Shown here piece by piece: positions 6,951 through 41,817 of a stretch of DNA of 64,000 nucleotides. Every line of letters begins with the position of its first letter. The stretch's first letter is position 1. Source of the stretch: Flectonema sp. DT1601 (lineage: Eukaryota). The stretch is taken from assembly GCA_964019425.1 (NCBI GenBank), contig OZ025806.1, forward strand, positions 372,001 through 436,000. Reading direction: 5' to 3'. The position numbers were made by a program, and so were the translations under genes. The notes beneath the pieces are model-generated. The model did no database searches. It worked only from the letters and a program-made list of their open reading frames with translations, and had not been told where the DNA came from.

Positions 6951-7077
6951 TAAAAGGGTGCCCCAGTACCGGATTTGAGTTTTTTGGATACTATTTTCGT
7001 GGGGTGGTGGGCTCGGATTGGGTGTTAGGTGCCCACGGGATAGCCTGGTAAAAATTGGGGGGGGGGGGGGGGGGGTA

Positions 7078-9026
7078 GGGGGGGGTACAAGCATCGATTT
7101 TACGGAGATTTTGGGCACTTTCGGTTTTTTTCCGGAGAACAAGTTTTTTGTGCACCCAAATTATGAAAACTGCAACATATACCCCAAAAATGGGGATTGC
7201 GATCCAAAGAAACAGTTCTTCGGCACTTTAGAGCAAGTCTTTGAAAAATCTCAAAAAGTGTGGACCGTGTGGTACCTGAGGGGGGTGAAAACAAGGGGTG
7301 TGTTAGGAGGGCTCACAAAAATTACAAGTAATTCCGTGCATTGAGCAATCCATAACCAGGGTTTCCCTCCGAGTTGAGTGGGGGATGAAAAGGGAACCCA
7401 GTTTTTATTTTTATCGACCTGATTTGAACCTTAATAATATGCTACACGAGACCCGGCGTGTTAATTCCCCCTTGTCCGATGTTTAGGCTACTGGCCTTCT
7501 CTTGAGCATCTCATGTGCTCAGCTTTCGAAATTCGTCCCGAAGCTGTGCTTCTTTCTGTACAAGATAGACAGAGGACCAATCCTTGGATGCAGACGGCAG
7601 ATTAGCATTAGACCTTGCTGTCTAGAGGTCTTCCCTGTGAGGACGGGGTGGTACGTTCAGCCCCTGTAGCGCCTCCTGTTGTGCTTGTTCTTGCCAATCT
7701 GAAGAGGGTCGGTGGTCCTACGTTGATGTGGTAGCCTTTGGAAGTCCGTGTGCCTCTGGAATATGTTGTACGTTATCAGTAGGGCAACATTCACGCCACT
7801 GGTTCCATCAGTTGACCAAGAACTATCAACAACACTGAATAACCTCCCCATCCCTTGAGGGGTGCAGGATGACAACGAACACAACGGTTGTTAGCTTCAT
7901 CCCACGAGCACGACAGGCACTAGAGGAAGTATCATGCTGCAGCAATGTGACGGAGGGTGAGGAGGAAGCTGCTGCTTCAAGAAGTCAGGTCACCGACAGA
8001 TCACCTGAATCCATCAACAAGTCGGACTGTCCTTCGAGATATAGTTGGTGACTTCGACCCGCTTCCCTTCTGTCTGCGCACCTGCGACAGCTTCAACTAT
8101 GTCACTCACTCAGGACTTTGTTGGATGTCTCTGCGGCGATCCCTTCTTGCCGCAATATCTGCAGTGTTGTTACGACTCCAAGACTCCAGGAGTATATCTC
8201 CCTCGTTTGGGTACAGTTGCAAGCGGGTGTGTCTTTCGTACTTCTCCTTATGCTGCATATACTAGAGTGTCTTGTATGCCCTGCTGGTGAGTATGGTTGG
8301 GTCTTAAGTGATGCCTTGAACGGCTTTTTGGATAGGGCATGTTGCCCTATGTCGCTGCTGCTTATCTATGGCACTGCTATTTGACGCACTACCACTACAG
8401 CTGTCTTCAGGATTATCCCTGTTTGGGGTACTGACGTGGCGCTTTCTCCATTCTGTGAGCCTTCTGTGATCACGATTCAGATACTGGACGTTTCTTGACC
8501 CCTTTCTCACGCGTATCTTACTTCTGACTGTCCAAGTGTTGTTGCGTGACTTCAGAGATGCCTCGGGTGGTGTTTTCATGCACTCTGGGATCAATGCTCT
8601 CCTCCGCAGAATGACTTTGTGAGCTGCCCTGCAGAACGTTGTTTTCCGCTGCGTTATCCTGCCCATGAGCCTCGTGGCCTCAAGCATGGCCGAGCGAGAG
8701 CGCTGTTCTTTTTCGTGGCGTGTTCTTGAGGCGGAAACTGATACGTAAATGGTATATTAGCAAACTGCGCATACAGGGGCACACCAAGACTCGCCTCTTC
8801 TCATTGTAAAAAAAAATTATTTGAAGGTGCATTTCACAGGCCTCAAAATTGGACCCCCAGGTACCACACGGTCCACACTTTTTGAGATTTTTCATTCCTT
8901 TGCCGAAATCAGCCAAATCGAGGTTTTTTCGGCCCCGAAATCACATTTTTGGGGGTTCTGATGGGGTCCTGGGTATTTTTTGCCCCCGGGAAGGTTATAT
9001 TTACCAAAATTCGGAAAAAGTACCCC
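7078..9026. mobile_element. Non-autonomous TIR DNA element, copy 1 (inner TIR partly deleted)
   Basis: Starts GGGGGGGGTACAAGC after TA (7076-7077) and ends ...gtacccc before TA (9027-9028). It is the reverse complement of 9029-11002. Confidence 0.8.
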
Positions 9027-9028
9027 TA

Positions 9029-11002
9029 GGGGGGGGTACAAGCTGTCGATAAAGTACTTTTTCCGAATTTTGGTAAATATAACCTTCCCGGGGGCAAAAA
9101 ATACCCAGGACCCCATCAGAACCCCCAAAAATGTGATTTCGGGGCCGAAAAAACCTCGATTTGGCTGATTTCGGCAAAGGAATGAAAAATCTCAAAAAGT
9201 GTGGACCGTGTGGTACCTGGGGGTCCAATTTTGAGGCCTGTGAAATGCACCTTCAAATAATTTTTTTTTACAATGAGAAGAGGTGAGTCTTGGTGTGTCC
9301 CTGTGCACGCAGTGTGCTAATATACCATTTCCGTATCAGTTTCCGCTTCAAGAACACGCCACGAAAAAGAGTAGCACTCTCGAGCGGCCATGCTTGAGGC
9401 CACGAGGCTCACGGGCAGGATAACGCAGCGGAAAACGACGTTCTGCAGGGCAGCTCACAAAGTCATTCTGCGGAGGAGAGCATTGATCCCGGAGTGCATG
9501 AAAACACCTCCCGAGGCATCCCTGAAGTCACTCAACAGCACTTGGACAGTCAGAAACAGGATACGCGTGAGAAAGGGGTTCAAAAAACGTCCAGTATCTG
9601 CATCGTGATCACAGAAGGCTCAGAGAATAGAGAAAGCGCCACGTCTGTACCCCAAACAGGGATAAGCCTCAAGACAGCTGTAGTGGTAGTGCCTCAAATA
9701 GTAGTGCCATAGATAAGCAGCAGCGACATAGGGCAACATGCTCCATCCAAAAAGCCGTTCAAGGTATCACTTAAGACCCAACCATGCTCACTAGCAGGGC
9801 ATACAAGACACTCCAGTACATGCAGCATACGAAGAAGTACGGAAGACACATCCGCTTGCAACTGTACCCAAACGAGGGGGATATACTCCTGGAGTCTTGG
9901 AGTCGTAACAACACTGCAGATATTGCGGCAAGAAGGGATCGGCGCAGAGACATCCAACTAAGTCCTGAGTGAGTGACATAGTTGAAGCTGTCGCAGGTGC
10001 GCAGACAGAAGGGAAGCGGGTCGAAGTCACCAATTATATCTCGAAGGACAGTCCGACTTGTTAATGGATTCACAGGTGATCTGTCGGTGACCTGACTTCT
10101 TGAAGCAGCAGCTTCCTCCTCACCCTCCGTCACATCGCTGCAGCATGATACTTCCTCTAGTGCCCGTCGTGCTCGTGGGATGAAGCTAACAACCGTTGTG
10201 TTCGTTGTCATCCTGCACCCCTCAAGGGATGGGGAGGTTATTCAGTGTTGTTGATAGTTCTTGGTCAACTGACAGAACCGGTGGCGTGAATGCTGCCCTA
10301 CTGATAATGTACAACATATTCCAGAGGCACATGGGCTTCCAAAGGCTACCACATCAACGCAGGACCACCGACCCTCTTCAGATTGGCAAGAACAAGCACA
10401 ACAGGAGGCGCTACAGGGGCTGAACGTACCACCCCGTCCTCACGGGGAAGACCTCTAGACAGCAAGGTCTAATGCAAATCTGCCATCTGCATCCAAGAAT
10501 TGGTCCTCCGTCTATCTTGTACAGAAAGAAGCACAGCTTGGGGCCAAATTTCGAAAGCTGAGCACATGGGATGTTCAAGAGAAGGCCAGTAGCCTAAGCA
10601 TCGAAGATGGGGGAATTAACAAGCCCGGTCTGGTGGAGCATATTATTAAGGTTCAAATCAGGCCGATAAAAATAAAAATTGGGTTCCCATTTCATTCCCC
10701 ACTCAACTCAGAGGGAAACCCTGGTTATGGATTGCTCAATGCACGGAATTACTTGTAATTTTTGTGAGCCCTCCTAACACACCCCTTGTTTTCACCCCCC
10801 TCAGGTACCACACGGTCCACACTTTTTGAGATTTTTCAAAGACTTGTTCTAAAGTGCCGAAGAACTGTTTCTTTGGATCGCAATCCCCATTTTTGGGGTA
10901 TATGTTGCAGTTTTCATAATTTGGGTGCCCAAAAAACTTGTTCTCCGGAAAAAAACCGAAAGTGCCCAAAATCTCCGTAAAATCGATGCTTGTACCCCCC
11001 CC
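9029..11002. mobile_element. Non-autonomous TIR DNA element, copy 2 (inverted, both TIRs intact)
   Basis: 15-bp TIR GGGGGGGGTACAAGC / GCTTGTACCCCCCCC, with TA on both sides (9027-9028, 11003-11004). A shared subterminal motif aaaaatctcaaaaagtgtggaccgtgtggtacctg lies near both ends. Confidence 0.85.
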
Positions 11003-11035
11003 TAGGGGGGGGGGGGGGTTTCTGCACATCCTCAT

Positions 11036-11116
11036 ATTCTTTTTTATTTATTTATTTTTAAAAAAGAAAACAATCAGTTTAGCGTCTTGACCAGGACGGA
11101 AAATAGAAATTAATCA
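11036..11116 (+). repeat. Partial hairpin-satellite unit truncating the retroelement RNase H
   Basis: aacaatcagtttagcgtcttgaccaggacggaaaatagaaa is identical to the B units. Confidence 0.85.
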
Positions 11117-12500
11117 CTGCTATCTCTTGCATTGTCGCGGCATGTATGTCGAGGAGTTGATGATTCAATTCAATGACCTTGAGAACTCCATAGCACAGAG
11201 CATACATTTCCTTCACGTAAATATCGTATCTCTGAGGATTCACAAAGGAACCCCAAAATTCCTCTAAAGAAGCCAACAAGACAACTCCCCAACCAGAACC
11301 ACTAGCATCGGTGGCGATTCTTATCACCTTGCGTTCTAGATCGATCACCCATGATGCCCATTCGTTTTTGAAGAGCGCAGAGAACTGCACTTCAATGTAC
11401 TTCGCGATTGGTTCAACAGATGTCAATTCAGTCCACGGACGTCCCAGGGCTGCAGTACGTGACATCCAAGTAAGAATGGGGCGCAGAAATCTCATCGGAC
11501 CGCCAAGAGCATAGAAACTCCACACCAAAATCCCACAAATCTTCCATGCGACACGAATCGGAATAGGCTTTTCCAACAATGAAGTAATTGCAATCAGCTT
11601 CTGAGTCCACTCGGAACGACAACGTATATGTTTACGTTCGAGGTCCCATTCAATCCCAAACGCAGTCAGTTTCGTACCCACAGGATCAACATCCCCAAGT
11701 ACAACTCGATACCTCTGGCAGAGTAATCTAAATTTAAGTCCAACTTCTTCAAGCTGACCCTTTTCATCAGACACAAAGACAACATTATCCATCCAAACCA
11801 GAAACCGAACAGACAGACCCGAAGTTGCAACTTCTGCGAGTTTCTCAGCAAACCTTTGACTGCGGGGTGCACTTGAATCCCATAGGCGCTCGTTTCATAC
11901 GTAACAGACGATTACCAACTTGAAATCCAAAGATGTTTCTTATCTCCGTAGGAAGTAGAAATTGAAAGTAAAACGATTTAAAATCAAACTGTGAAATCCA
12001 CTCAGAGCTCATTATCGTGTTGCGAATAGTCTGATATGAAGGCAAAGCACACTTGGGAATGACGACACCGTCCAGTGCTTTATTGACCCCTTTTGGGTTC
12101 AAAATAAAACGAAGAGCTCCAGGTTGTTTCTTTTTGACACAGAAGGCACCACTCAGAATACGGCTTTTACACGAATGTGGAATCAATTCAGCAATGTCAA
12201 GGTCAATTAAGCGTTGAACATGAGGCTCTAGTAGTTTGTTCGGAGGACCCATTGCACCTTTTTTTAAGGATGTGATGTGCCCACCAACGTCTAAAATCCA
12301 TTTAAAATTGTCTTTGCACTCTGGATAGTCGTGCAGAAATGAATCTAAATCAATATGAGTCAGAGGTGATGAAGCGATCTCACCTTCATAACAAGCCCTC
12401 CTTGCACGCGGAACGCCTGCTTCATCCAGCCATTCGGAAAAAGAGTCTGCATATCCGTAATCATCCATCGCACATTCGAGTGAAGACATCCCTCTAGGCC
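11117..12500 (-). pseudogene. Reverse transcriptase-RNase H of a tyrosine-recombinase (DIRS-order, VIPER/TATE-like) retroelement; frameshifted and 3'-truncated
   Basis: AFCVKKK..GALRFILNP, QFDFKSFYFQF, APMGF; frameshift near 11860; then RFLVWMDNVVF, FGIEWD, and RNase H IATDASGSGWGV...IYVKEMYA. Confidence 0.85.
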
Positions 12501-12512
12501 AGATATCCACGT

Positions 12513-13031
12513 TCAAATCTTCTGCAGCAGGTCTGTCGGCTGTAGGGAGTTCTTCGTGCCCTTCCTGGTCTCGTGAGGAATGTATTTGAGCGTAGACACG
12601 TCGGACTTGTGCCGAGCCAAGGTCTGAGCTGCGTCCTGTCCTATCTTTGTCGCAACAAAACCTAGTGCGGAATGTCTGACATAATGTGAGGTCGTCGCGA
12701 TACGCCTCTTCAAAAACGCGTTGTAGTTGGATAGTGTCAAACCTGGAAAGATTTGGCTGTCGCCCTGCAGTGTAGTCAGCCAACGTCTCAGAATCTGGAA
12801 AAATGGACCGGTCGTATTGATCAATAGACCCTGTCCTTGGGCCCTGATGTCCGTCTTTCCCGCTATAAGAGTGATCAACGTCTGATTCCCTTTGATTGTA
12901 CGAATGTGATGAACGCAAAGAAGTTCGAGATCCCGAAACCGACAAGCAAGCATCCACTGACACGCTAATGTAACTTTTAGCCTCACCAGGGTAGTCGAGT
13001 TGTCGAAAACCACACTTGTCGTCTCTCCCAC
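12513..13031 (-). CDS. Tyrosine recombinase catalytic domain of the same retroelement (5'-truncated)
   Basis: Complete catalytic set: R (ACRFRD), K (GKTD), HxxR (HYVR), H (ARHKS), Y (TLKY). Confidence 0.88.
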   Translation of the reverse strand: MGETTSVVFDNSTTLVRLKVTLACQWMLACRFRDLELLCVHHIRTIKGNQTLITLIAGKTDIRAQGQGLLINTTGPFFQILRRWLTTLQGDSQIFPGLTLSNYNAFLKRRIATTSHYVRHSALGFVATKIGQDAAQTLARHKSDVSTLKYIPHETRKGTKNSLQPTDLLQKI

Positions 13032-13091
13032 TCGCGTGACTCGCGAAGCAGAAATCGTCGGTACGCATCCTGCTCTGCAAATGCAGACCAG

Positions 13092-13358
13092 TTATGCGTG
13101 CTCTGCGGAAGGGTAAACCCCACCTTGAGGCATGTTCTGACCGGATGCCCTGTTGCACTCAACCAGGGACGTTATACTTGGAGACATGACAGTGTCCTCA
13201 AGAGAATTATACTCTTCTTGGAAGAGTTACTAAAAAAGTACAACCAGAGGAAGTTGTACTTACCTCCACCATCAAAGGCTTTTTTGAAACCAGGAGAAGA
13301 AAAGGCCACAGCAAGACAACCACGCGAGATGATCTGGAGATCAAATCGTCTAATGTGA
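13092..13358 (+). pseudogene. Fragment of an RLE-type non-LTR retrotransposon (zinc-knuckle region, HERO/NeSL-like)
   Basis: CVLCGRVNPTLRHVLTGCPVALNQGRYTWRHDSVL: a CCHC knuckle plus the RHD motif that precedes the restriction-like endonuclease. Confidence 0.8.
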
Positions 13359-26608: not shown

Positions 26609-29600
26609 ATGTCGTTGCCTGGTATTCAAAGCCCATCACCAATACCTGTAAAGCTCCCCTCAGCTGATGGTAAGATATCGCTCGACGTTGTTAAATATTT
26701 AATTGGTGGAAATGATATTTCACACAGAACTGATAGAAGAATAAAAACACAACACCAAAGCACTGAAGTTGAAAAGAGCGATGAAAAGGATATTATGAAA
26801 AGATTATTGAGTGAAGCTAGAGACCCAGATTCATTCGTGGCAAGCGTTCTAAAAGTCAGTCAGGTAGGAACAGAAGCTACGCCTCCGGCAATGATCCCGA
26901 GAGAGTATTGGATCTACAGTGAAAATCCTTTATCTCACGCATTTGGGTCTTCTAATACAGCTTTCTTTGATCAAAAATTGAGTATTTGGAAAAAAAAAAT
27001 TTTTCCCTCTGAAAAGCCATCATCCAGAACAGAAGTTATACTTTTAGCAAAAACACTTGATATGATGTTATCCAAAGTAGATATAAGTGTGGTGAGCGAT
27101 ACAGAAAAGTGTTACTCGGCAGAAAGTTCTGACTACAACACGACTTTTAAAAAACTGTTGGAAATATACAACGTTGGTTTTGGTGAACTCATACGTCAGG
27201 TTTACGTTCAGTGCGCTGAGAGAGGAGTAGTGTTGGATGGTATTCGAAATTTGTACGCAGATTATTCGAGTAATTGTCTTGAAATTATTGCGTTTTTAAA
27301 ATCTCAAGTTAGATCTTCGAAGTCTAAGTTAAAACAAGCAGCTGATCAAGTGACCAAGGCAACCTCAGCAGCTAAAGCAGCCAGATATGAGTCAATGTTG
27401 ATCGGGATCGAACTGAAACAACTAACTGCAAATAATGAATCTTTATTATTGAAAATAAAAAATCAATCAGCCTTGGAAAGAAGAGCATCGTTAATGAAGT
27501 CATTCTTAACAAATCAACAATCAAGAAACGCTATGCTACTTCAACTAGGAAATGATAATAGTAGGGAATTACACGGAAATTCTCTTCAGGAATGTGTTGA
27601 GGAAGATGAATCTAGCGATGGTCATTCTACGCAACCAACGAAAGGAAATGAAAGGATGAATTCTGAAAAGGAAATAAAAAAAATGAATTCAATGCATCGT
27701 AACGACGCAAGTAATCGATCTCTTAAAAAAAAAAAGTTAACATCTCAATCCACACAAACGCTAACAGATGACGTGTGGGATCAGCCGCTCTACAATTCCT
27801 TAGTCTCATTCTGTGACATGGTAAGGAAGACGGTAACTGCAACTGAAGAGGTGACTCCATTGTATTCTTGTTTAGTATTTAACAATCCTTTAGAAAGTGC
27901 TAAATGGGCTCAGAAGAAGATGAAAAAAATTATTGAGGAATACGTCTCCACAGCTGATGGACAGACGAATGAAAATACTGAGTCTGATGAGGGAGTGATT
28001 GGGTCATTTACGATAACGAAAAAAGTGCTTTCGGAGACTCTGGAAGATGTCACCGTTACCTTAAAGGAGATAGTCACTCGGTTGACATCGTTTTACTCAT
28101 CGGCACAGTTTAAAGCAAAAATTCAAGGACTACTAAGACAAGATACGAATAGAATTCAAAAAGTACTGACAGTTGAGGATCTGGTCCCCACCACTGAGAC
28201 GGGAACCGTATCTTCACTTCAACCTCCTCGTTCATCAGAAGTTTGTCCTCTCTGTGTCAGACCTCCAGAGAAAGAATTCACTACCTCACTTGTTGATTCA
28301 AAAAAAGTTCATTCAGAAGGATCCATGAAGCCTCAAAAAGAGTTAGGAAAACAAACTCCAAACCAAGCTGCTGTTGATGAGCTGTTGGAAAAACTTCGAC
28401 TGTCGGAAGAAAAATCAAAACAACTCGAGAATGACATGACTGATACATTAGCTAAAGTCGAACATGCGGAAAGAAATGCGACAGCAATGGAGAAGCAGAT
28501 GAATGCGAGTATTGAAACACTGAGAGAAACAGTATCAGATCAAAGAAGAATGTTAGACTCTCAAGCAAGTGATCTCCAACATCGAAAACTAGAGAACATC
28601 GTTAATAAAAAAGTTCAGGAAATGAAAGCTGAAAAAAAAGCTTTGCAGCAGATTCCGAGAAGTCCGACACCACCAACTACAGCACCTCCAAATCGAGTGT
28701 CCGTTGAACATGTGATTGATAAGGTTAAGCCTTCAGTGAACACGTCACCACCACCAGAACCAATTACTGAACATAAAAAACCTCCTTCTACTGTCTCACC
28801 TGATCCAGTTGTTAAAAAGCCTCGTACAAAAATTACTTCTCAACCTTCGAAAATTAGAAATAGAAAACCACAACCAACACCAACCCAAACTCCCGCTGTA
28901 AAAAAACCAAAAATCAATCAAAAAGAAATACCAAAGATCTCTGAAGCTAATCAAGATGAATTCGAAAAAGATGACATTCTGATTGAGGATGATAACCAAA
29001 GTCAAGCTAGAGATGAGGACACAGTCGATGAAGACGAACGTTCTAACTACAGTTCAGAGCCTGCTCCCTCCTCAATGGCATCTAAAGAGGCTGAGATTGA
29101 TCCTCCGCAAAAAGATATGTTTATTGACATTGGACAGGTGGTACCTAACACTGGAGTCCTCCCCCGTCGTAGAGGAACTCTCAATAGAGAAACGACTCAT
29201 CGACTGGCTAAAAAATTATCTCCTCAGGAACGCGCTGCCGAACTAGCTGTTCACAAAGAACGTCGAAGAAGAGAATTAGTCGCTGCTAAGAATGTTCAAA
29301 TGTCTCATATTCTTGAGAATGCCGGAAATACAAAACCAAAAACTCAACTTTGGCTCCTTCGTCAGGTGAACTCATTTTACAGAGCAAAGGCTATTGCGGA
29401 TATGGTATGGATTTCTATTTTAAATTCTTCCTCCTTCTGTCCGACTTCACTTTAAATGATGACAACGTTTACAAAACACTCTCGTTCTTCTGACTCATGT
29501 TTGATGAGCCATTGTAAATCATGCTTCTGCAATTCTGAGGATCTGTTTTTCTTCTTCTTCTGTCTTTGAGAATCCCACTCAGTAATTGAGTACAGTCACC

Positions 29601-32600
29601 CTTCCAGTTTCGATCTACGAGAATGATTAAAAAAGAATTTGGCATTTGGCTTGAAGGTTCTCCCTGTTGATACTAAACAATTAACTACCTTAATCTAATT
29701 TGATGATTTGTGAAAAGAGAATGAATTCCCTCCTTCCTCCTTCTGTCCGACTTCACTTTAAATGATGACAACGTTTACAAAACACTCTCGTTCTTCTGAC
29801 TCATGTTTGATGAGCCATTGTAAATCATGCTTCTGCAATTCTGAGGATCTGTTTTTCTTCTTCTTCATCTGTCTTTGAGAATCCCACTCGGTAATTGAGT
29901 ACAGTCACCCTTCCAGTTTCGATCTACGAGAATGATTAAAAAAGAATTTGGCATTTGGCTTGAAGGTTCTCCCTGTTGATACTAAACAATTAACTACCTT
30001 AATCTAATTTGATGATTTGTGAAAAGAGAATGAATTCCCTCCTTCCTCCTTCTGTCCGACTTCACTTTAAATGATGACAACGTTTACAAAACACTCTCGT
30101 TCTTCTGACTCATGTTTGATGAGCCATTGTAAATCATGCTTCTGCAATTCTGAGGATCTGTCTTTCTTCTTCTTCATCTGTCTTTGAGAATCCCACTCGG
30201 TAATTGAGTACAGTCACCATTCCAGTTTCGATCTACGAGAATGATTAAAAAAGAATTTGGCATTTGGCTTGAAGGTTCTCCCTGTTGATACTAAACAATT
30301 AACTACCTTAATCTAATTTGATGATTTGTGAAAAGAGAATGAATTCCCTCCTTCCTCCTTCTGTCCGACTTCACTTTAAATGATGACAACGTTTACAAAA
30401 CACTCTCGTTCTTCTGACTCATGTTTGATGAGCCATTGTAAATCATGCTTCTGCAATTCTGAGGATCTGTTTTCTTCTTCTTCTTCATCTGTCTTTGAGA
30501 ATCCCACTCAGTAATTGAGTACAGTCACCATTCCAGTTTCGATCTACGAGAATGATTAAAAAAGAATTTGGCATTTGGCTTGAAGGTTCTCCCTGTTGAT
30601 ACTAAACAATTAACTACCTTAATCTAATTTGATGATTTGTGAAAAGAGAATGGTTTCCCTCCTTCCTCCTTCTGTCCGACTTCACTTTAAATGATGACAA
30701 CGTTTACAAAACACTCTCGTTCTTCTGACTCATGTTTGATGAGCCATTGTAAATCATGCTTCTGCAATTCTGAGGATCTGTTTTTCTTCTTCTTCTTCTG
30801 TCTTTGAGAATCCCACTCGGTAATTGAGTACAGTCACCCTTCCAGTTTCGATCTACGAGAATGATTAAAAAAGAATTTGGCATTTGGCTTGAAGGTTCTC
30901 CCTGTTGATACTAAACAATTAACTACCTTAATCTAATTTGATGATTTGTGAAAAGAGAATGGTTTCCCTCCTTCCTCCTTCTGTCCGACTTCACTTTAAA
31001 TGATGACAACGTTTACAAAACACTCTCGTTCTTCTGACTCATGTTTGATGAGCCATTGTAAATCATGCTTCTGCAATTCTGAGGATCTGTTTTTCTTCTT
31101 CTTCATCTGTCTTTGAGAATCCCACTCAGTAATTGAGTACAGTCACCATTCCAGTTTCGATCTACGAGAATGATTAAAAAAGAATTTGGCATTTGGCTTG
31201 AAGGTTCTCCCTGTTGATACTAAACAATTAACTACCTTAATCTAATTTGATGATTTGTGAAAAGAGAATGGTTTCCCTCCTTCCTCCTTCTGTCCGACTT
31301 CACTTTAAATGATGACAACGTTTACAAAACACTCTCGTTCTTCTGACTCATGTTTGATGAGCCATTGTAAATCATGCTTCTGCAATTCTGAGGATCTGTT
31401 TTTCTTCTTCTTCTGTCTTTGAGAATCCCACTCGGTAATTGAGTACAGTCACCCTTCCAGTTTCGATCTACGAGAATGATTAAAAAAGAATTTGGCATTT
31501 GGCTTGAAGGTTCTCCCTGTTGATACTAAACAATTAACTACCTTAATCTAATTTGATGATTTGTGAAAAGAGAATGGTTTCCCTCCTTCCTCCTTCTGTC
31601 CGACTTCACTTTAAATGATGACAACGTTTACAAAACACTCTCGTTCTTCTGACTCATGTTTGATGAGCCATTGTAAATCATGCTTCTGCAATTCTGAGGA
31701 TCTGTCTTTCTTCTTCTTCATCTGTCTTTGAGAATCCCACTCGGTAATTGAGTACAGTCACCATTCCAGTTTCGATCTACGAGAATGATTAAAAAAGAAT
31801 TTGGCATTTGGCTTGAAGGTTCTCCCTGTTGATACTAAACAATTAACTACCTTAATCTAATTTGATGATTTGTGAAAAGAGAATGGATTCCCTCCTTCCT
31901 CCTTCTGTCCGACTTCACTTTAAATGATGACAACGTTTACAAAACACTCTCGTTCTTCTGACTCATGTTTGATGAGCCATTGTAAATCATGCTTCTGCAA
32001 TTCTGAGGATCTGTTTTTCTTCTTCTTCTTCTGTCTTTGAGAATCCCACCCGGTAATTGAGTACAGTCACTATTCCAGTTTTGATCTACGAGAATGATTA
32101 AAAAAGAATTTGGCATTTGGCTTGAAGGTTCTCCCTGTTGATACTAAACAATTAACTACCTTAATCTAATTTGATGATTTGTGAAAAGCGATACTGTCAG
32201 TTTCTTTTATAGGACTACAATCATAATCTAAGACAAGTAAATAACCAAAAACCCAAACCAGACAATACTGGGAAGTACTGACACCCCACTGACTGAGTTT
32301 ATAATTGACAAAATAAGACAAAAACACGGTTCGAAAAAGTTGTCGGATGCTTCAATTGGAACGCTTCTTGTTACTGTTTCTCATTACAAGTCTGATCCAA
32401 GAATTGAGTTATTTGCAAGTTTTTTAAGCGGAGTGTTCTCAACAAGGGCATTGTCGTTAGTAGTGAGGTATAATAAGATAATTGACGAAACGAGAGCTGG
32501 ACCTGAATATTCAAAAAGCCCGGCTGATGATCGAAGGTGTGTATTAAAACAATATGATAAGAGAGGTTTCCAGTTTGGGCTTTTATAAAAAAAAAAAACG

Positions 32601-32905: not shown

Positions 32906-33235
32906 TCGCTTGTGACGTTTCTGTTTTTTTTTTTACCGAACAATGAGGTAAGAAATAATAAGTTGCCACGTCTTTTTCTTTCTCTCGTGGTCTATCTTAG
33001 ATTATATAAAAATATATTTTTTTATTTTTTATTTGAAACAAATTGTTTCTAATTTTTTATACTCCATTCACTTATGTATGGATCACTTACACGTAAAGTT
33101 CCTTTTTTCTTTTTTTTTTTTAAAATTGGGAAAACCCCTAATTCCACAAAAATAGTTTGCGAAATCGCCAACTCATCACAAAAAAAAAACGTCCCACCCC
33201 GATATGAATAAAAAGAGGGAAAAAACTTTCTGTAC

Positions 33236-33251
33236 TTTCTGTACTTTATTG
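33236..33251 (+). other. Retrocopied 3' part of the euglenozoan spliced leader
   Basis: TTTCTGTACTTTATTG matches my recollection of the last 16 nt of diplonemid and Leishmania spliced leaders; a partial duplicate tttctgtac lies at 33227-33235. Confidence 0.88.
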
Positions 33252-33315
33252 ATTTCCTACCATTACCTGGTGAGAGTCGATTTTGTGCGGGTTTTCTGAC
33301 AGACATAAAACTATA

Positions 33316-34740
33316 ATGAGCAGTTGTAAGGAGCTGCTTTTGGATGTGATGCGGTTAGTACAAGAAGTGGAGAAAGGACTAGCAGGAGAAGAAAAGAGAA
33401 GGAGGGTTTTGACTCTCACGATGAGAGTGCTGGAGCAGCTGACGGAGGACTCCGGAGAGAAACAAGGAGAGTCGTCAAAGAGAAAGACGACAGAGCAAGA
33501 GAGGAAGGGGAAGGAGTCCGGGGGACAACGACAGGAAGCGGCGAGCACGGTGAGGGATGGAAATGATGGAGGCCCGACGCCAACTACCAACAACAAGAAA
33601 CCCACTCTGCCAGAGTGGTACATTCACGCAGCGTGGGCTAAAGCAACACCTACGCTTAAATTCTCAGAAGCAATCGATGCCTCCAAAAACAACGCGGACG
33701 GACTCGTGCTCATCAGCTCAAAGGCTGATTATGAAGCACTGAAGCAAACACGAACGAAGGGCGACTGGACTGCCATCTCAAAGTCTAAACTGTTTAAAAC
33801 AACAGTCCCAGTCGCACTTCCAGTCGTAAAGAAGTGCGGAACCTGCGTCATTCGTAGGGTATTTGTCACCCCGATTTGTGGCAAAGATTTCACTGCCGCA
33901 AGAGAAGACGCCATCGAGCCACCACAGCCGGACCCAGTTCTATTCGTACAAGACTGGAGTAAATCAGCAGAGAGCACTCTCACCACTAAGGTGAAAGAAT
34001 TAATTAAAAAGTGGGAGCTGAAGACATCGCCCTTCGGATTTAAAAAATGCGATATGCACACATCTATGGCGATCCGTGTGCCAAACTTCAGAATTTCTGA
34101 AATTCTGGAATACAACAACAGCGACACCTCCAGTGAGAAGAGAGATCTATTCATCAGAAACCCATCTTGGTCTAATGGCCAAGACTCTTGGAACACAGTT
34201 CAGTTCGTTAAGGACTTGGGCTTCAAAGCGGTGCTGGGCAAACTTTCAGTTCTTTCAGCAATCAAAGGTAGCTTCTACATCACGAAGTTCCGAGAGTGCT
34301 TTGGGCTGAAAGTTCAACCCGGGTTTACTCAAAAAGTGAGAGAATCACTCGGGGATTCTCTGAAACCCGCACTGCCGACTGGTCAGCGTTTTATAATTAA
34401 ATCACTGGCTATTAAGAAGTTCACGACGCAACAGATCAGCGATCACCTGTTGCACGCATACAAGTGGAGTCACACAATTGTGGCTAGTTTTCATAAGGGA
34501 GGCAACAAAACGTTAATTGCAATCTCTGAATCGGTTCCATCACCAAGCTTCGTCGACATGGGTAAAGATGCGTACCTTGTAATCAACATGGAAACTAAAA
34601 GAGAAAAGCCGGTCAAATTGGGGCCGACCTTCAACCCGGGCAAGGGTCCAGTTATATCTGGTGATCTGAAGCGACACTGTGCTGAAGAACCAACCGATAC
34701 TACTGAAACGACTGATGTGGAAATGGATAATTCAAACTGA
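33316..34740 (+). CDS. LINE ORF1 protein (474 aa), no recognised domain
   Basis: ATG 64 nt after the SL remnant; intact ORF ending in TGA at 34738-34740. Confidence 0.85.
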   Translation: MSSCKELLLDVMRLVQEVEKGLAGEEKRRRVLTLTMRVLEQLTEDSGEKQGESSKRKTTEQERKGKESGGQRQEAASTVRDGNDGGPTPTTNNKKPTLPEWYIHAAWAKATPTLKFSEAIDASKNNADGLVLISSKADYEALKQTRTKGDWTAISKSKLFKTTVPVALPVVKKCGTCVIRRVFVTPICGKDFTAAREDAIEPPQPDPVLFVQDWSKSAESTLTTKVKELIKKWELKTSPFGFKKCDMHTSMAIRVPNFRISEILEYNNSDTSSEKRDLFIRNPSWSNGQDSWNTVQFVKDLGFKAVLGKLSVLSAIKGSFYITKFRECFGLKVQPGFTQKVRESLGDSLKPALPTGQRFIIKSLAIKKFTTQQISDHLLHAYKWSHTIVASFHKGGNKTLIAISESVPSPSFVDMGKDAYLVINMETKREKPVKLGPTFNPGKGPVISGDLKRHCAEEPTDTTETTDVEMDNSN

Positions 34741-37700
34741 CTTGACAAACGAACACCGTCAACTTCAAATTCTAAAAATGACTCACATCATAGTAAAGTT
34801 CTGGTGAAGCCGACTACTGTAACAGCACCGACTATCTCTCAAACTGAAAAAGAACTGACCCGAAGTTTATTACTGCTGGCAGGCGACGTTGAACGCAACC
34901 CTGGACCTGAAAATTCGTTACTCTCAGTGTTGAGCTGGAACTGTAGATCGATAAGTCAGAAGGGGTCTTATATTCAAAGACTCCTTTCTCACTACTCGCC
35001 GGATGTACTGTGCTTACAGGAAACCTGGTCGAAGGAACACATTTCGCACCCTGGCTATTATACATATAGGAAGGACAGAAATACAAAAGGTGGTGGCATT
35101 ATAATAATGGCAAAGAGATGCTTCTCACAAGGAATCAGTGATGAAGAATTGTTTTCGAGAACAAGCGGTATCGAAGCTATGATGCTGAATGTTGGTGGTG
35201 TCAATGTTATTAACGTTTACGCTCCCCCTGGGTGTATCATTAGAGAAGATGATCTTCCGATCACAACGAAGTCTATTATTGCGGGCGACTTCAACGCACA
35301 CAACCTCGTCTGGTCTACCAGGACAACCAAATCTGGTAAAGAATTATTTAATTGGGCGGATCGCAATGACGTTCTCGTAGCAAACAGACCTGGTCAAATA
35401 ACTCGGCCCAAACACGACATTCCTGGCGGTGGTACCTCACCTGACGTTATATTCTTTAAAGGATCAATTGTATTAGAAGAATTTTCAATCATAAATGAAG
35501 ACAGTAAACATAACTCGGATCATCGACCTCTACTCGCTATCTTCGACACAATGGCTCACCTCTCTCAAGCAACAGTTGGAGCAAGGAAACGAACTGTCTG
35601 GGATTTCAAATCTACAAACTGGAGTGCTTTCAGACAGCAACTTGATAGAAGAATTGATAGGGCTAAGTTCTCGGATGATGCCACTGGTAATGTTGGATTA
35701 TTAAATAACATAATACATGAAGTAGCTGCGAGGAACGTGCGGAGGAGAATCTTATTTAAGGGCAAGCGCCGACGTAAGTGGAAGACCTCTTCACCTGAAT
35801 CTATAAAATCAAAAGGTAGTCACCTGAAAGACCAACTGAGGAAGGGGAACAACTTTAACTTCGCCTTCAAGAAGATTAAAGAACTCCAACAGGACGCTGG
35901 TAAGGACATCAGCGTATCAAATATATCTGAGAACGATTTACCTGCAGCATTTCTGGACCTCTTTGTGGCCGATGGGGATGCTGCTAAACTCGAAGCCCCT
36001 TCATTGAAGAAAGAAGACTTGGAATTGGACATCTGTTGTGACTTCACAGATACCGAGATATCAGCAGCAATTAAAAACCTGAAGCCTCGCAAAGCAGCAG
36101 GCCCTGACGGTATTCACAACGAAATGCTTAAGAACTTATCTCAGAAGGCAGTTGACTGTTTATTAAAGGTGATCAATTCTTCGTGGAGATCCTCCAATGT
36201 TCCATATCTTTGGAAACAGGGGTTAATCAAACCGATGTTCAAGTCGGGCAAACCGCGGAACGATATTAAAAGCTACAGACCAATCACACTCACTTCGGTT
36301 GTTGGCAAACTGGCTGAGAGGTTGGTGTACGACAGGCTCATGCATTGGCTTACCGAAAACTCAGCACTCAGTCCGATTCAAGCTGGCTTCAGACGGGGCA
36401 GAAATACCTGCGAACAAATCACAATTCTGGTGGACGCCATGGTAAACAACCACACGAAGGGGAGGAGGTCAGTCTTCTTGTCATTCGATTTCACAGCAGC
36501 CTTCGATAGGATTAACCATCGAATTTTACTTTCAAAACTACAAAGAATGGGCATCCCAACCTTCATCGTTCGATGGATAACGGACTTTCTAACCAATAGG
36601 AAGGTCAGAGTTGATGCAAATGGACATTTCAGTAAGTTTCGTACGCTGTCAAAAGGAGTGCCTCAAGGATCAATCTTAGGCCCACTACTCTATTTAATAT
36701 ATGTTGACGATCTGTGTAAGATTCTCTCACAAGAGAAGGAAACGACTTTGACCGCACTGTATGCAGACGACACCGCTTGTGCAGTATTTGGCTCGACCAT
36801 GGACGAAGCAATCTCAAACGCTCAACGAATACTTGACATCGTTGACAAGTGGTGCCGTGATAATGACATGGCACTTTCAGTCTCCAAGACTTGCGCTCTG
36901 AAAATGGATATTCAATCGAAAGAAGTAACCCTGACTGATACTAGCGACCGCGAACTCTTATTCTCAAAATCACTGGAAGTACGTTCGTTAGATATTGACT
37001 ATTTTGATCTAGACAGCGTGATCAACACGACGACGACAAGGCCCACTTTACTGAGTGGTGAAACGATCCTCGAAGTAGAGGGGAAACCCATCAGGACTCA
37101 ACAAGAATTAGAAGATTTACTGATGTTGAACATCCACGACGAGATGAATGTCAAAGCGAAAATTAAAATTGCCTTCCTACTGCCGATCACGGACTCAGTG
37201 AAATATCTGGGTGTTTACATTGATAACAGGCTCAGGTTTGATAAACAGTTAGAGAAAATACACGACGAACTGAAGAAAGGGATCTCCCTTCTGCAGTGCC
37301 TCCAGCCATATGAATTGGACTACAAGACCCTAAAGATGGTTAAAAACTTGTACGTGACAGCGAGGATTTCCTATGCACTGGACAGCTTTGGTTGGTTGCT
37401 CAACCAGCATAAAACGGATGCTATCGACTTCGAGATGAGAAAAATAGCGAGACTCGTAACAGGATGCAGCAGATGTACTCCGAGGGAGTTGCTCCTTTGG
37501 GAAGCCGACATCTTACCGTTTAAAAGACAAATCGAAAAGCAGACTAAAATTGCCTATTTCAGGTACAAAGCCATGACCTGGGTGCCGGACACCAACTCAC
37601 TCGCATCGCCTCGAAGCTTCTGGGGTGGCCTCATTCCCCGTTCTGAAGGTCAACTAGAAAGTGTGGGGATCGTTCAACCTGACTCTATCAAACCTTGGAT

Positions 37701-38721
37701 TGCTTCGGACAATGTTCAAATCAGCAACAGCTGCGGTTTTACAAAATCCCCTGATCCCGCAGTGGACAGGGAGAAATTCCTTACCTACAACGCGACACTT
37801 CCTCCGGTGGACATGGTGATCAACTGTGACGGTTCATACTCTTCGAATGCGTCAGGCGCGGCTCTCATTGCTAGGTCACGAGACGGAAAGAAACGTGCTC
37901 ATGCGACCAGATTAGTGCGTGCGGATTGCAGCTACAGAACTGAGCAACATGCCTTGAAAAATGCGGCAAACTACTTAAACTGGAAGGTACAGAAAGACGG
38001 GCTAACTAAGTCAGTCAGAATCTATACCGACTCAAAATCATTGTTGGACGAGTTGAAGGGTGGCAGGTGTAAACAGAGAAACACCAGATCCCTCGGCATC
38101 CTCGAGAACCTACGGAACTGCGGTATGAAAGTACATCTTCAATTCATCCCTTCTCATATGGGGATAGAAGCACACGACGAAGTTGATGAACTTGCTAAGA
38201 AATCGGCTCACAACAGATACCTCCCTCAAATCCCAATCCGAGGATCCTTCTTCTATCACAAATCCCGAGTGAGGAGGGGGATCACGAAGGACATTTGGAA
38301 CAGAATTGGTTACACTTGCTATAAAAACACCGTCAAAGGTGCCGCGATAAAATATCCTCCCGACATGAAAAGGAGCGATGAAATCAGAATTGCGAATTTT
38401 AGAACGGGGTGTCATCCACTGATGCAAAACTGGCGGAAAGCCATCAAATGTCCATTCTGCCATAGCGCTCCATCCAACCAACTCCACCTACTCGTAGGCT
38501 GTCCATCACAGAAACTCGATGCAGCCAGATATGAAATCCTTGGCTTTTCTACATTGACAGGCAAATGGGACCGATCAAGTGATCTAATCCTCATCAACGG
38601 CATTCCTGCCAGTCTTGGCTCAATCTTTGCCACCAGCTGGCTTCCTTCAGTAGCGATGTTGATCAGGTGGATGGAACAAGCATCCAACCTGAGACTTTGG
38701 AATTGTGTAGGTGACACGTAG
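34741..38721 (+). CDS. LINE ORF2: 2A-like peptide, AP endonuclease, reverse transcriptase, RNase H, C-terminal zinc finger
   Basis: LLLLAGDVERNPGP; SWNCRS, LQETW, GDFNAH, SDH; YRPITLTS, GVPQGSILGP, YADD, KYLG; CDGS, YTDS, PSHMG; CPFC...HLLVGC. The frame is open from 34741. Confidence 0.95.
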   Translation, partial: LDKRTPSTSNSKNDSHHSKVLVKPTTVTAPTISQTEKELTRSLLLLAGDVERNPGPENSLLSVLSWNCRSISQKGSYIQRLLSHYSPDVLCLQETWSKEHISHPGYYTYRKDRNTKGGGIIIMAKRCFSQGISDEELFSRTSGIEAMMLNVGGVNVINVYAPPGCIIREDDLPITTKSIIAGDFNAHNLVWSTRTTKSGKELFNWADRNDVLVANRPGQITRPKHDIPGGGTSPDVIFFKGSIVLEEFSIINEDSKHNSDHRPLLAIFDTMAHLSQATVGARKRTVWDFKSTNWSAFRQQLDRRIDRAKFSDDATGNVGLLNNIIHEVAARNVRRRILFKGKRRRKWKTSSPESIKSKGSHLKDQLRKGNNFNFAFKKIKELQQDAGKDISVSNISENDLPAAFLDLFVADGDAAKLEAPSLKKEDLELDICCDFTDTEISAAIKNLKPRKAAGPDGIHNEMLKNLSQKAVDCLLKVINSSWRSSNVPYLWKQGLIKPMFKSGKPRNDIKSYRPITLTSVVGKLAERLVYDRLMHWLTENSALSPIQAGFRRGRNTCEQITILVDAMVNNHTKGRRSVFLSFDFTAAFDRINHRILLSKLQRMGIPTFIVRWITDFLTNRKVRVDANGHFSKFRTLSKGVPQGSILGPLLYLIYVDDLCKILSQEKETTLTALYADDTACAVFGSTMDEAISNAQRILDIVDKWCRDNDMALSVSKTCALKMDIQSKEVTLTDTSDRELLFSKSLEVRSLDIDYFDLDSVINTTTTRPTLLSGETILEVEGKPIRTQQELEDLLMLNIHDEMNVKAKIKIAFLLPITDSVKYLGVYIDNRLRFDKQLEKIHDELKKGISLLQCLQPYELDYKTLKMVKNLYVTARISYALDSFGWLLNQHKTDAIDFEMRKIARLVTGCSRCTPRELLLWEADILPFKRQIEKQTKIAYFRYKAMTWVPDTNSLASPRSFWGGLIPRSEGQLESVGIVQPDSIKPWIASDNVQISNSCGFTKSPDPAVDREKFLTYNATLPPVDMVINCDGSYSSNASGAALIARSRDGKKRAHATRLVRADCSYRTEQHALKNAANYLNWKVQKDGLTKSVRIYTDSKSLLDELKGGRCKQRNTRSLGILENLRNCGMKVHLQFIPSHMGIEAHDEVDELAKKSAHNRYLPQIPIRGSFFYHKSRVRRGITKDIWNRIGYTCYKNTVKGAAIKYPPDMKRSDEIRIANFRTGCHPLMQNWRKAIKCPFCHSAPSNQLHLLVGCPSQKLDAARYEILGFSTLTGKWDRSSDLILINGIPASLGSIFATSWLPSVAMLIRWMEQASNLRLWNCVGDT

Positions 38722-39217
38722 TCGCCATTTAAGTGTTTTATCAATATTTAGTATTTTCATCATTATCAATCATCTCCTGGTTGGGTAACTGCACATCACC
38801 TTCGGTGTTGTCGCAGTGTCTCTTCCAACACTCCTGTCTCCTTTTTCTCCTATTCTCCTTATAAATTTCTCTTGAGGGCAGGCCTTCGGGCTGTTCAAGT
38901 GGTCTTTGACCACCGCTCTAGTTATATGCTCGATTCTTTGTTTTTCCTTATCGATGGTAGGAATGGTAACCGAATTAGCTTCGTGTGTCCAATTTCAAGG
39001 ACGCGTGACCATTTATTTTTTCCCGTTGCCGCTCTTCTTACGTCCTCAGGCGGAGCCTACCTATGTTTCCCGTGTTTTCCAATTTGTCAGACTTAAACCA
39101 AAAGAAAGTATAAAAGAAAGACAAAACAAAGAAGTGAAAAGAACAAAAACAAAGAGTCTGGAAGCACAGACGAGTGTAACCAAAAAAAAAAAAAAAAAAA
39201 AAACTTTTTTTTACAGC

Positions 39218-39300
39218 GACCCGTTAGTCGAGAGGTAGTACCTCCACCTTATATCCCAGAGGTACCCGGCTCGAATCCCGATACGACCTTTTTTTTTTTT
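39218..39300 (+). promoter_or_regulatory. Degenerate tRNA-like Pol III cassette (A box, B box, T-run) inside the MULE
   Basis: TAGTCGAGAGG (39225-39235), GGCTCGAATCC (39268-39278), T12 at 39289-39300; cloverleaf stems are poor. Confidence 0.5.
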
Positions 39301-39450
39301 ACCCAAAACCTGATGGAAAAAGAGAGCGTGACAAAGGCAATTCAAAATAAGACCAGACGTGGCAAAAGTGTCAAAACACATGCATATGGCAATCAGAGTT
39401 TTCTTTTTAGAGAGGGATAAACATTGTTGAACAAGTCAGTGGCCAGTAAG

Positions 39451-41412
39451 TCAGTCAGAATCTGTCGTTGAAGTTGAGTAAGACTCTGTCGTTGAAGTTG
39501 AGTAAGATGAGTAGGATGACTGTGCACTTAAAGATTGTGAGTCCGAATCAGAGGATTCACATCGCTTTCGCTTCTTCTTGACTGTCTTTGCTGCTGGCTT
39601 TGCTGCTACTTTCTTTGCTGCTGGCTTTGCTGCTGGCTTTGCTGCTGGCTTTGCTGCTGGCTTTGCTGCTGCTTTCTTCGCTGCTGGCTTTGCTGCTGGC
39701 TTTGATGATTGCGAGGTTGGTTTCCGACAACTTCGTTTGTTGTGACCTTTAGCGTCGCAGTTGGAGCACGTCAGGGTCCTTGATTCACCGTTGGAGCGAA
39801 TCCGAACCTTTCTTCTTCTCCCGACACCCTTCTGCACAACAGGGGGTTTCGTGCCGTCGAATTGAAGCTGTCCGGTAGGTATCGCCTGTGGGTACACAGA
39901 GACGCGGTAGAGCTCTCTGTAGCTGCTCATTCTGGTGTAGGGAGGCAAAGAGGTTTCGTGAGTAAAGACATTATTGCGCTGATGTGTCAATACTCTGACT
40001 GTGTGGATGCAAGGTAGGTTGTGGCGGAGGAAATCAGGACAGCCACACACTAATGTTCCATCTTTCAGACACACCAACCACCCGTGTTCTCGTCGTACTT
40101 CCCATTGTCCTTCACCCAGTGGTGTGACAGCATGGTTGTTTGCTGAGGTGGCACTCCCCCGAACGAACAACTCCACTGTCGGAACCGGATAGTTCGCAGG
40201 AACGTCAGCATGCATCTCGCGTCGGCTGGCGTAGGTGTCCGTTGTCCAACAACGGGTGTCCTTTATCACAGATAAAAGACTCCCTTGCCGAGTCTCCTTG
40301 AACACGGCGTTGACGCATTCCGACGCGTTGGAGGTGTAGGTGTTGCATCTGGGGACACCCGAAGGCCAGTAAGCGTCTGACCACCTTTCAAGGTTTGACT
40401 TAAGCAGATAACGATGGGCACGTTTTCCGTACTTGTCCTTTATCCCTTGAAGGCACGTCTCGGCCTCTGTTTCGATGCTTAGCTTGCTAATCTTCCACAC
40501 TAACAACGTCGCATCAACCTTCGGTATCTTCGTCTGGCTGGCCACGTTGCCAACCAAGTGCTGCACGCACAAAGCATGGTGCAACACGACTCCGTGCAGG
40601 GAGGTGTCGGACTCCAGCCCCTTCTGCCTGTCGGAAATCAAGACGAACCTTTTCAGTCGGTCGCCAAAATGGTTCTTCAGGTGGGTGTGGTGGTATGCCC
40701 ATCCCTCGTGGTTTTCGACCACTCCAACCGAGTAGGCTAAAGGCATAACATGCCTTTCGGCGTCGATCCCCACGGTGATGAACAAGCACCCACCAAACGG
40801 ACCCGTCAGACTGCATGCATCGCTGCAGATGACAGGTGCCAGGTGCTCAGCTGTTTCTGGCCTCACAAAAGACCAAAACACCCTCTCAAAAGCACCATCA
40901 TCTCTCTTCTCGATGTTCCAGTACATCTGGCTGTTGCGCTGTTGGAGATCGGTGAGGTACGGTGCTATCAGGCCGTACTGCTCGCCCATCAACCCGTGGA
41001 CCTTCTCCTTGGCCTTCTCCAGACCCCTCTCCACAGTCTTTTTGGGGACCGCAACGTCGCGGAATGACTTTAAGTCAATTGCCGCTTGTTTCGGCCCGTA
41101 GTCAAACTGACTGGCTACCTTCTCTTCCAAAATACTGGAAATCCAGTCCGACGTGCCATCGCAGCCCCGCCTCGCTTCCCCAGGTGCGCAAGTGTGACTC
41201 TCCACCTTCGTCACGCGGCACTCCCCCTCCACCACCTTTGCCTTCACCGTCCATTGGCATTCGTCGTTTGGACAGGCGAGGGTGAGGTACGTGGGGCACC
41301 TTCTCTGCACCCTGCAGCTGTGTCCTAGCACAGTGTTCACCCGAAACACAGTCTGGATCAGTTCTTCCTGTGTGCGGAAGTAGTCTCCAACAGCATAAGT
41401 AGTAGCAGGCAT
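39451..41412 (-). CDS. MULE (MuDR-like) transposase with SWIM finger, CCHC knuckle and KPAA-repeat tail
   Basis: ICSDAC, ISDRQKGL, CVQH, TSNASE; CGC..F...LPCIH; CSNCDAKGHNKRSC; intact 653 aa. Confidence 0.95.
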   Translation of the reverse strand: MPATTYAVGDYFRTQEELIQTVFRVNTVLGHSCRVQRRCPTYLTLACPNDECQWTVKAKVVEGECRVTKVESHTCAPGEARRGCDGTSDWISSILEEKVASQFDYGPKQAAIDLKSFRDVAVPKKTVERGLEKAKEKVHGLMGEQYGLIAPYLTDLQQRNSQMYWNIEKRDDGAFERVFWSFVRPETAEHLAPVICSDACSLTGPFGGCLFITVGIDAERHVMPLAYSVGVVENHEGWAYHHTHLKNHFGDRLKRFVLISDRQKGLESDTSLHGVVLHHALCVQHLVGNVASQTKIPKVDATLLVWKISKLSIETEAETCLQGIKDKYGKRAHRYLLKSNLERWSDAYWPSGVPRCNTYTSNASECVNAVFKETRQGSLLSVIKDTRCWTTDTYASRREMHADVPANYPVPTVELFVRGSATSANNHAVTPLGEGQWEVRREHGWLVCLKDGTLVCGCPDFLRHNLPCIHTVRVLTHQRNNVFTHETSLPPYTRMSSYRELYRVSVYPQAIPTGQLQFDGTKPPVVQKGVGRRRKVRIRSNGESRTLTCSNCDAKGHNKRSCRKPTSQSSKPAAKPAAKKAAAKPAAKPAAKPAAKPAAKKVAAKPAAKTVKKKRKRCESSDSDSQSLSAQSSYSSYSTSTTESYSTSTTDSD

Positions 41413-41817
41413 CTTTTAATTTTTTTTTGTGGAAAGCTGCAACAAAAAAACTTTGTAATAAAAATTAAGAATTTTTTTTTTTTTTAAAATCTGTCAAGTT
41501 CGAGTCCCGGTGCGGTAACTTTTTTCCCTAATATTTCGGCCGATGGTCAATTTTTCGGGTCAAGTTCGAGTCCTGGTGGATAACTTTTTTTTGTAGGGAG
41601 TTGGCGATTTCGCAAACTATTTTTGTTGAATTAGAGGTTTTCCCTTTAAAATTTAAAATATATTTATTTCCTTCGTTCTTCGGTCAGTCTGAGGTATACT
41701 TTGTGGATGTTTTTTTTTTTTTTTTTTTTTTTTTTTTGAAACTTAATTCACCTTAAATCTTCACACAGTTTGATTCTAACGAATGGTAACTTTTCAATAA
41801 AAAAACGACAAATAAAA

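Follow-up and report, generated by a model that had tools for sequence, protein, structure and literature searches.

A diplonemid LINE begins with the 3' end of the spliced leader and may renew its 5' end by trans-splicing

The DNA analysed here is a single stretch of 64,000 nucleotides, which we call the window. Between positions 33220 and 39207 it holds a LINE with its TSD copies, inserted about 100 nt inside one end of a MULE that has itself remained intact. The features of the two elements, including the head of the LINE, where sequence of the spliced leader (SL) is found, are as follows:

33128..41644, minus strand: host MULE, with TIRs at 33128-33187 and 41585-41644 and a 9-bp TSD
33220..33229, plus strand: left TSD copy of the LINE, 10 nt, AAAAAACTTT, identical to 39198-39207; its terminal TTT overlaps the SL-like head
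33227..33235, plus strand: outer 9-nt SL partial (SL nt 24-32), from comparison with the published SL
33236..33251, plus strand: 16-nt SL tail TTTCTGTACTTTATTG (SL exon nt 24-39, after the internal CAG)
33238..33291, plus strand: predicted hairpin between SL tail and leader (33238-44 with 33285-91; 33248-55 with 33274-81), found post hoc
33252..33315, plus strand: leader, 64 nt, with AGs at 33273, 33275 and 33301
33316..34740, plus strand: ORF1, 474 aa, ATG at 33316, without a Pfam family; start and stop identical in other copies
34741..38721, plus strand: ORF2, in the same frame as ORF1 past one TGA, with 2A-like, APE, RT and RNase H motifs and a C-terminal CCHC
34885-34908, plus strand: 2A-like DVERNPGP, before the APE
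38722..39197, plus strand: 3' UTR with poly(A) tail, the A run starting at 39182
39198..39207, plus strand: right TSD copy of the LINE, AAAAAACTTT, directly after the A tail
39451-41412, minus strand: MULE transposase, 653 aa

ORF2 occupies a stretch of 1326 codons in the ORF1 frame, behind a single TGA (34738), and carries its APE and RT domains in one frame (Pfam Exo_endo_phos and RVT_1), with L1 ORF2p as its best PDB match. Acidic RNase H motifs follow the RT at ORF2 residues 1030-1140; the Pfam RNase H family was not called in the window ORF2, and it was called in the Flectonema relatives and in Atlas look-alikes. The first in-frame methionine of ORF2 (35107) lies downstream of both the first APE motifs and the 2A-like peptide. 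Having APE motifs before this methionine and after the 2A-like peptide suggests that the enzymes are made by TGA read-through and ribosome skipping. An ORF1 of 473-474 aa is present in 15 of 18 members listed, spread over at least 14 contigs. The position of the ORF1 stop is common to all 15 cluster members listed, and the last ORF1 residue is Asn in each of three related families; judged from these protein comparisons, the TGA between ORF1 and ORF2 is a trait of the LINE family. The 2A-like motif also occurs in a sister family, with a variant in Flectonema. The family is young: compared to the window copy, six full-length proteins show 0-6 changes in the 474 aa of ORF1, and four ORF2 proteins show 0-11 in 1304 residues. 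The closest named relatives of both proteins come from the diplonemid Flectonema neradi (41-49% and 44%). ORF1 gave no usable Atlas match, and the Rfam search of the LINE 3' UTR gave only five weak, unrelated matches. Another copy is represented by the protein P0227, which has only the last six leader codons in common with the window copy and then diverges; this suggests that the copy was cut about 20 nt before the ATG by ordinary 5' truncation and has no SL.

Several smaller observations concern the same elements. P0237, an ORF1 protein of the sister family, starts with a match to the translation of the window LINE 3' UTR (38926-38990), suggesting either a nested insertion or a common 3' UTR. 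The MULE has Pol III B-box-like motifs near both ends (39269, 41498 and 41564, three of the four in the window), and the LINE insertion point lies about 60 nt upstream of one of them. ARAGORN returned no tRNAs, and the MULE protein had no exact-sequence match in the protein cluster collection.

By protein similarity, the host belongs to the diplonemids: among species-named matches of its E1 enzyme, the best seven are all diplonemids, at 60-65%, compared to 52% for a euglenid and 48% for a kinetoplastid. In D. papillatum, the genome paper describes an SL on essentially all mRNAs and genes arranged in one-strand clusters (PMC10161547). The long host ORFs that flank the insertion on both sides are on the plus strand, which is the strand of the LINE in this one copy.

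The preliminary description of this locus had claimed an SL 16-mer at the 5' junction of the LINE, 64 nt before the ORF1 ATG, and we confirm it with one refinement: the outer partial opens with the TTT that ends the TSD, which leaves the first base of the element ambiguous between 33227 and 33230. The 16-mer TTTCTGTACTTTATTG at 33236-33251 (plus strand) is the sole match in the window at up to 2 mismatches (shuffle mean 0.10 at the same tolerance). Base composition predicts about 1e-4 exact 16-mers in a window of this size, and about 3e-8 no farther than 30 nt from the junction. It ends 64 nt upstream of the ATG at 33316, and the 9-nt partial adjoins it on the 5' side. The same description had identified the 16-mer as the 3' end of the euglenozoan SL after an internal CAG; the published SL of Diplonema sp. 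agrees, as its 3' end in the supplement of PMC3795323 is the window 16-mer directly behind CAG. The match at the head is therefore to the exact 3' end of the Diplonema sp. SL, situated between the TSD copies and ending where the exon ends. An SL RNA gene with its intron was ruled out, as no G-T follows the 16-mer. Since the TSD stands at 33220-33229 and again at 39198-39207, everything from 33230 on came with the insertion; and since the 16-mer lies between these copies, it was brought in by the LINE, not by the MULE, as had also been claimed and is shown by this reconstruction.

The lack of a Pr77/HDV signature, likewise part of the first account, was upheld by Rfam, an HDV descriptor and the L1Tc start motif, all negative at the head. 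The Rfam ribozyme search at E<=10 returned nothing at the LINE head and five weak, unrelated matches. Between 33100 and 33700 the HDV descriptor had 0 strict matches and four loose ones, all of them within ORF1, and loose matches also arose in 4 of 30 shuffles; the descriptor recognised 50 of 50 positives, a control that consisted of synthetic sequences and not real Pr77. The L1Tc start motif matched the window 19 times, with 0 matches in 33200-33330. The LINE is without a detectable Pr77/HDV signature and may possess some other promoter. The anatomy of the LINE, the identity of the SL for the genus Diplonema, the host group and the absence of a ribozyme match are established.

The window copy was almost certainly made from an SL-bearing RNA, and the LINE was likely copied from a host-processed message. 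Its head, 9 nt followed by 16 nt, is either a two-layer stack shortened by a 7-nt deletion between two TTTs, or a single SL copied with a slip of 9 nt; in both cases the template carried the SL joined at the last base of the exon. The relic starts at SL nt 24, as re-splicing predicts, while the outer layer is only 9 nt long, neither a second 16-mer nor a clipped full SL. Both borders of the head fall on TTT microhomologies, one of which is common to the target. The window copy has no SL-derived AG and therefore is not itself the self-renewing form. The nearest AGs upstream of its head are at 33214 and 33216 in purine-rich DNA, with another in the MULE at 33154, and the copy could be re-spliced at these MULE AGs or at those of the leader (33273, 33275, 33301). 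The separate idea that the leader is itself a chain of old relics, for which one copy was available, was set aside.

Splicing again at the SL's own AG would leave a DNA signature, which we looked for by searching JGI metagenome contigs for pairs of SL tails no more than 7 nt apart. This gave 38 loci. Seven contain a clipped SL followed by an exact 16-nt relic (L043, L048, L059, L071, L036, L047, L057), with three layers in L071; two have a variant SL and relic at contig starts, before host-like genes; and most of the remaining 29 are microsatellites or chance matches, near-duplicates included. A sense RT lies downstream of three of the seven stacks (L043, L048 and L059), or three of the four with at least 2 kb, compared to neither of the two variants and none of the 29 others (Fisher p ~0.005, indicative only, with the microsatellites and near-duplicates among the 29 making them a weak control). 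Five of the stacks have upstream flanking sequence, and in these the SL, preceded by non-SL DNA, begins at nt 6, 7, 8, 11 and 12. By analogy, these starts fit cDNA stops near the cap, which are placed at +5 to +21 on SL-capped mRNA in PMC1874656.

The stack loci have kinetoplastid-type DNA and SLs, and the three headed by an RT carry RLE-type motifs and do not belong to the window LINE family. By our own reading of the motifs, made without a tree, two of them look CRE-like and one HERO/NeSL-like. CRE elements target SL genes, as stated in PMC12278014, and the outer SL of the CRE-like stacks could therefore reflect co-transcription from an SL gene; their inner 16-mer still needs the AG rule. 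The first account had proposed that re-splicing leaves exactly a 16-nt relic. These seven euglenozoan-type loci, three of them retroelements, lend that rule outside support at the sequence level. In the window copy, re-splicing is a possible rather than an established origin of the relic border, because this border also falls on a TTT microhomology and the piece outside it measures 9 nt. A prokinetoplastid assembly is described as having about 80 contigs with a partial SL versus one with the full length (PMC7859406), which would fit scattered relics, although its authors, in the portion of the paper that we cite, do not read it so.

Some of these loci have features of their own. In L048 a UCH protease domain is encoded along with the RT, and L059 is inserted just past a 43% identical sister element, with no convincing TSD (best 8 nt). 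In L047 and L057 the stacks head long ORFs without a Pfam family. In L052 and L061 a variant SL that ends in a T-run is followed by a degenerate relic; the genes behind it are for an LRR protein and a P-type ATPase, and these loci are possible euglenozoan host retrogenes. In viral contigs the stacked-SL pattern was found at 0 loci, and of 55 candidate stretches that nine aligned diplonemid ORF2 proteins picked out in viral contigs, none was confirmed.

The SL tail and the leader are predicted to pair with one another, and the outer partial can lengthen this hairpin (33229-33 with 33299-303). The predicted pairing gain is -9.7 kcal/mol compared to -2.1 in shuffled leaders. With the relic fixed and the leader shuffled, the gain was reached in 0 of 500 shuffles for leaders of 50 and 67 nt and in 2 of 500 for 80 and 100 nt, and, among 732 natural segments of the window with similar GC, 8 matched or beat it. 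The fold z was +0.2 for the leader alone and -2.5 to -3.7 with the relic, with -1.9 for the longer segment that was folded first. Compared to a perfect inverted copy, the outer helix has only three A-to-G changes, each of which keeps its pairing as G-U; the hairpin as a whole is rich in G-U pairs and its leader arm is wobble-rich. Comparable pairing is absent from all seven metagenome stacks. Since three AGs inside ORF1 are also predicted to be paired and the A of the AG at 33273 is unpaired, any masking of AGs is not specific. The pairing, found post hoc and predicted by a folding model, hints at a family-level trait.

We favour, with modest confidence, a family-level cycle in which SL trans-splicing, instead of a Pr77-type promoter-ribozyme, renews the 5' end of the LINE at the SL's AG. 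A LINE copy would be transcribed along with host DNA on the strand of the gene cluster, and the spliceosome would add the capped 39-nt SL, which would free the 5' end and make the RNA translatable. The LINE RT would then prime at the poly(A) on an A-rich target and copy into the SL. Copies that keep the internal AG of the SL would be re-spliced there, leaving a 16-nt relic at no loss of element sequence, and a leader folded on the SL tail may mask the three downstream AGs that would shorten it. In the window copy, joining to the target at the common TTT would have lost the AG.

This cycle is supported by the exact SL 3' end between the TSDs, the diplonemid host, the lack of Pr77/HDV, the metagenome stacks, the pairing and the youth of the family. 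On the other hand, one 5' junction is known at the DNA level, and it shows a 9+16 head instead of a clean SL followed by a 16-mer, which a single round of retroposition with slippage explains equally well; the window copy also has no AG from the SL. The RT-headed stacks are RLE-type with kinetoplastid-type SLs, and two are CRE-like. The modelled hairpin is post hoc, G-U rich and missing from 7 of 7 stacks, and its masking would not be specific. The P0227 copy appears to be 5'-cut without an SL, and the nearest studied relatives make unspliced RNA, according to PMC1874656.

The strongest alternative, which we consider unlikely but to be taken seriously, is that the family relies on a promoter or 5' processing of its own that has escaped recognition, and that only the window copy stems from a read-through RNA which happened to be trans-spliced once, the 9-nt piece being TTT slippage. 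Having one copy, with both borders on TTT, agrees with such a one-off event, as does the report that nearly every diplonemid mRNA receives the SL (PMC10161547) and that L1Tc and ingi use an internal promoter (PMC1874656). However, a one-off junction would not predict a leader whose pairing with the SL beats all 500 shuffles and 724 of the 732 natural segments. Exact multi-round stacks are also present on other euglenozoan-type retroelements.

We find it improbable that the SL tail was captured once and is now fixed 5' UTR DNA, serving as an aid to structure or translation and perhaps as part of a promoter, and copied without new trans-splicing. The predicted hairpin would suggest such a lasting partnership, and giant-virus records do contain complete SL exons, encoded in DNA downstream of promoter-like motifs. 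Nevertheless, the 16-mer is perfect against the SL as published, while the leader arm is wobble-rich, and a second piece of SL lies upstream of the 16-mer. Somewhat less probable still is a template switch, in which the RT, on reaching the end of an unspliced LINE RNA, switched to SL RNA or to the SL of another mRNA. U6-L1 chimeras are a precedent for template switching, SL-bearing RNA is abundant, and the junction already has a microhomology event, but the join falls exactly on the last base of the exon, free of intron letters and of any recognisable foreign UTR. A chance match or assembly error is highly improbable given the ~3e-8 expected at the junction, the clean TSD, the intact ORFs and the intact MULE.

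More tentatively, the trans-splicing cycle may extend beyond this family. Several unrelated euglenozoan non-LTR clades would have dropped promoters and ribozymes and would renew their 5' ends at the SL's AG; the leader of the diplonemid LINE would have evolved pairing with the SL tail that steers trans-splicing off its own acceptors; and one SL-capped RNA would yield ORF1 and the enzymes through TGA read-through and 2A. We regard this wider reading as doubtful.

A close parallel in mechanism is offered by the relict-SL retrogenes of dinoflagellates, described as 'mRNA recycling' (Slamovits and Keeling 2008, as cited in PMC3229502 and PMC6050394). As these sources present them, they too have a DNA copy of the SL at the retroposed 5' end, cut at an internal AG, with layers that stack per round. 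The retroposed unit in the window is headed by a DNA-encoded SL 3' end without the SL intron, the mark by which a relict SL is recognised. In dinoflagellates, however, the passengers are host genes and the organisms alveolates, whereas the window has an autonomous LINE in a euglenozoan, a 39-nt SL and a 9+16 head. The mechanism itself is known from dinoflagellate retrogenes. Our literature search found no SL-headed euglenozoan LINE; Additional file 1 of the D. papillatum genome paper (repeats, SL, UTRs; PMC10161547) fell outside its scope and may mention SL relics.

Among euglenozoan elements, the trypanosomatid INGI clade (L1Tc, ingi) is similar in its APE-RT-RNase H order, 2A-like peptide before the enzymes, poly(A), short TSD and euglenozoan host (PMC1874656, PMC4035085, PMC12278014); for the TSD, 7-11 nt is used in PMC4035085, and that of the window LINE is 10. 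Unlike these elements, the window LINE has no detected Pr77/HDV, has an extra 474-aa ORF1 and is headed by the SL. We did not file it as a trypanosomatid INGI because the Pr77 test failed and because of the extra ORF1, and no named Ingi reference sequences were among the relatives found in the protein searches. According to PMC1874656, L1Tc and ingi RNAs are unspliced, with the mini-exon in 0 of 19 RIME/ingi cDNAs; unspliced RNA is proposed there as general for trypanosomatid LINEs, which are said to avoid trans-splicing as it would remove their 5' end. CRE/SLACS/CZAR and the nematode NeSL are also non-LTR elements with SL sequence at their junctions (PMC12278014, PMC4640811), but as described there their endonuclease is an RLE and their insertion sites are SL RNA genes, which makes the SL target DNA. 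The window LINE is not a CRE/SLACS element: it has an APE, lies within a MULE, has a TSD that is not SL and no SL at its 3' end, and a single 16-mer is present in the window.

A LINE must preserve its 5' end through every RNA round. The internal AG of the SL removes the cost of trans-splicing, because the integrated SL is the next acceptor. If the cycle is true, it would be a second solution next to Pr77/HDV within Euglenozoa, and the number of SL layers would give a tally of retroposition rounds, while their presence would flag full-length copies and retrogenes in the genomes of diplonemids and bodonids.

SL exons were also seen in virus records. A 20-nt SL tail has six exact matches in IMG/VR, and every one belongs to a whole 39-nt SL exon on one of three virus records (L030, L031, L032, L033, L034, L035). 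Each exon stands shortly behind an AAAA(T)TGA motif, which we take to be mimivirus early-promoter-like, and before an ORF. Five are Diplonema-type and one (L034) kinetoplastid-type. Four exons on the 238-kb record IMGVR_UViG_3300046534_001516 (L030, L031, L033, L035) fit the Diplonema SL consensus as given in PMC3795323. The Diplonema-type exons point to giant viruses of diplonemids, judging by their sequence, and our literature search found nothing on SL exons in virus records.

Elsewhere in the window, a near-perfect palindrome of 3.9 kb lies within 7076-13355. A TATE/DIRS-like RT-RNase H element lies at 11079-13068 on the minus strand, near which the SL tail had no match at up to 3 mismatches, and the fragment at 12981-13355 resembles an RLE-type LINE. 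At 29546-32316, a nine-copy tandem array of a 309-nt unit lies between two parts of a plus-strand host gene region.
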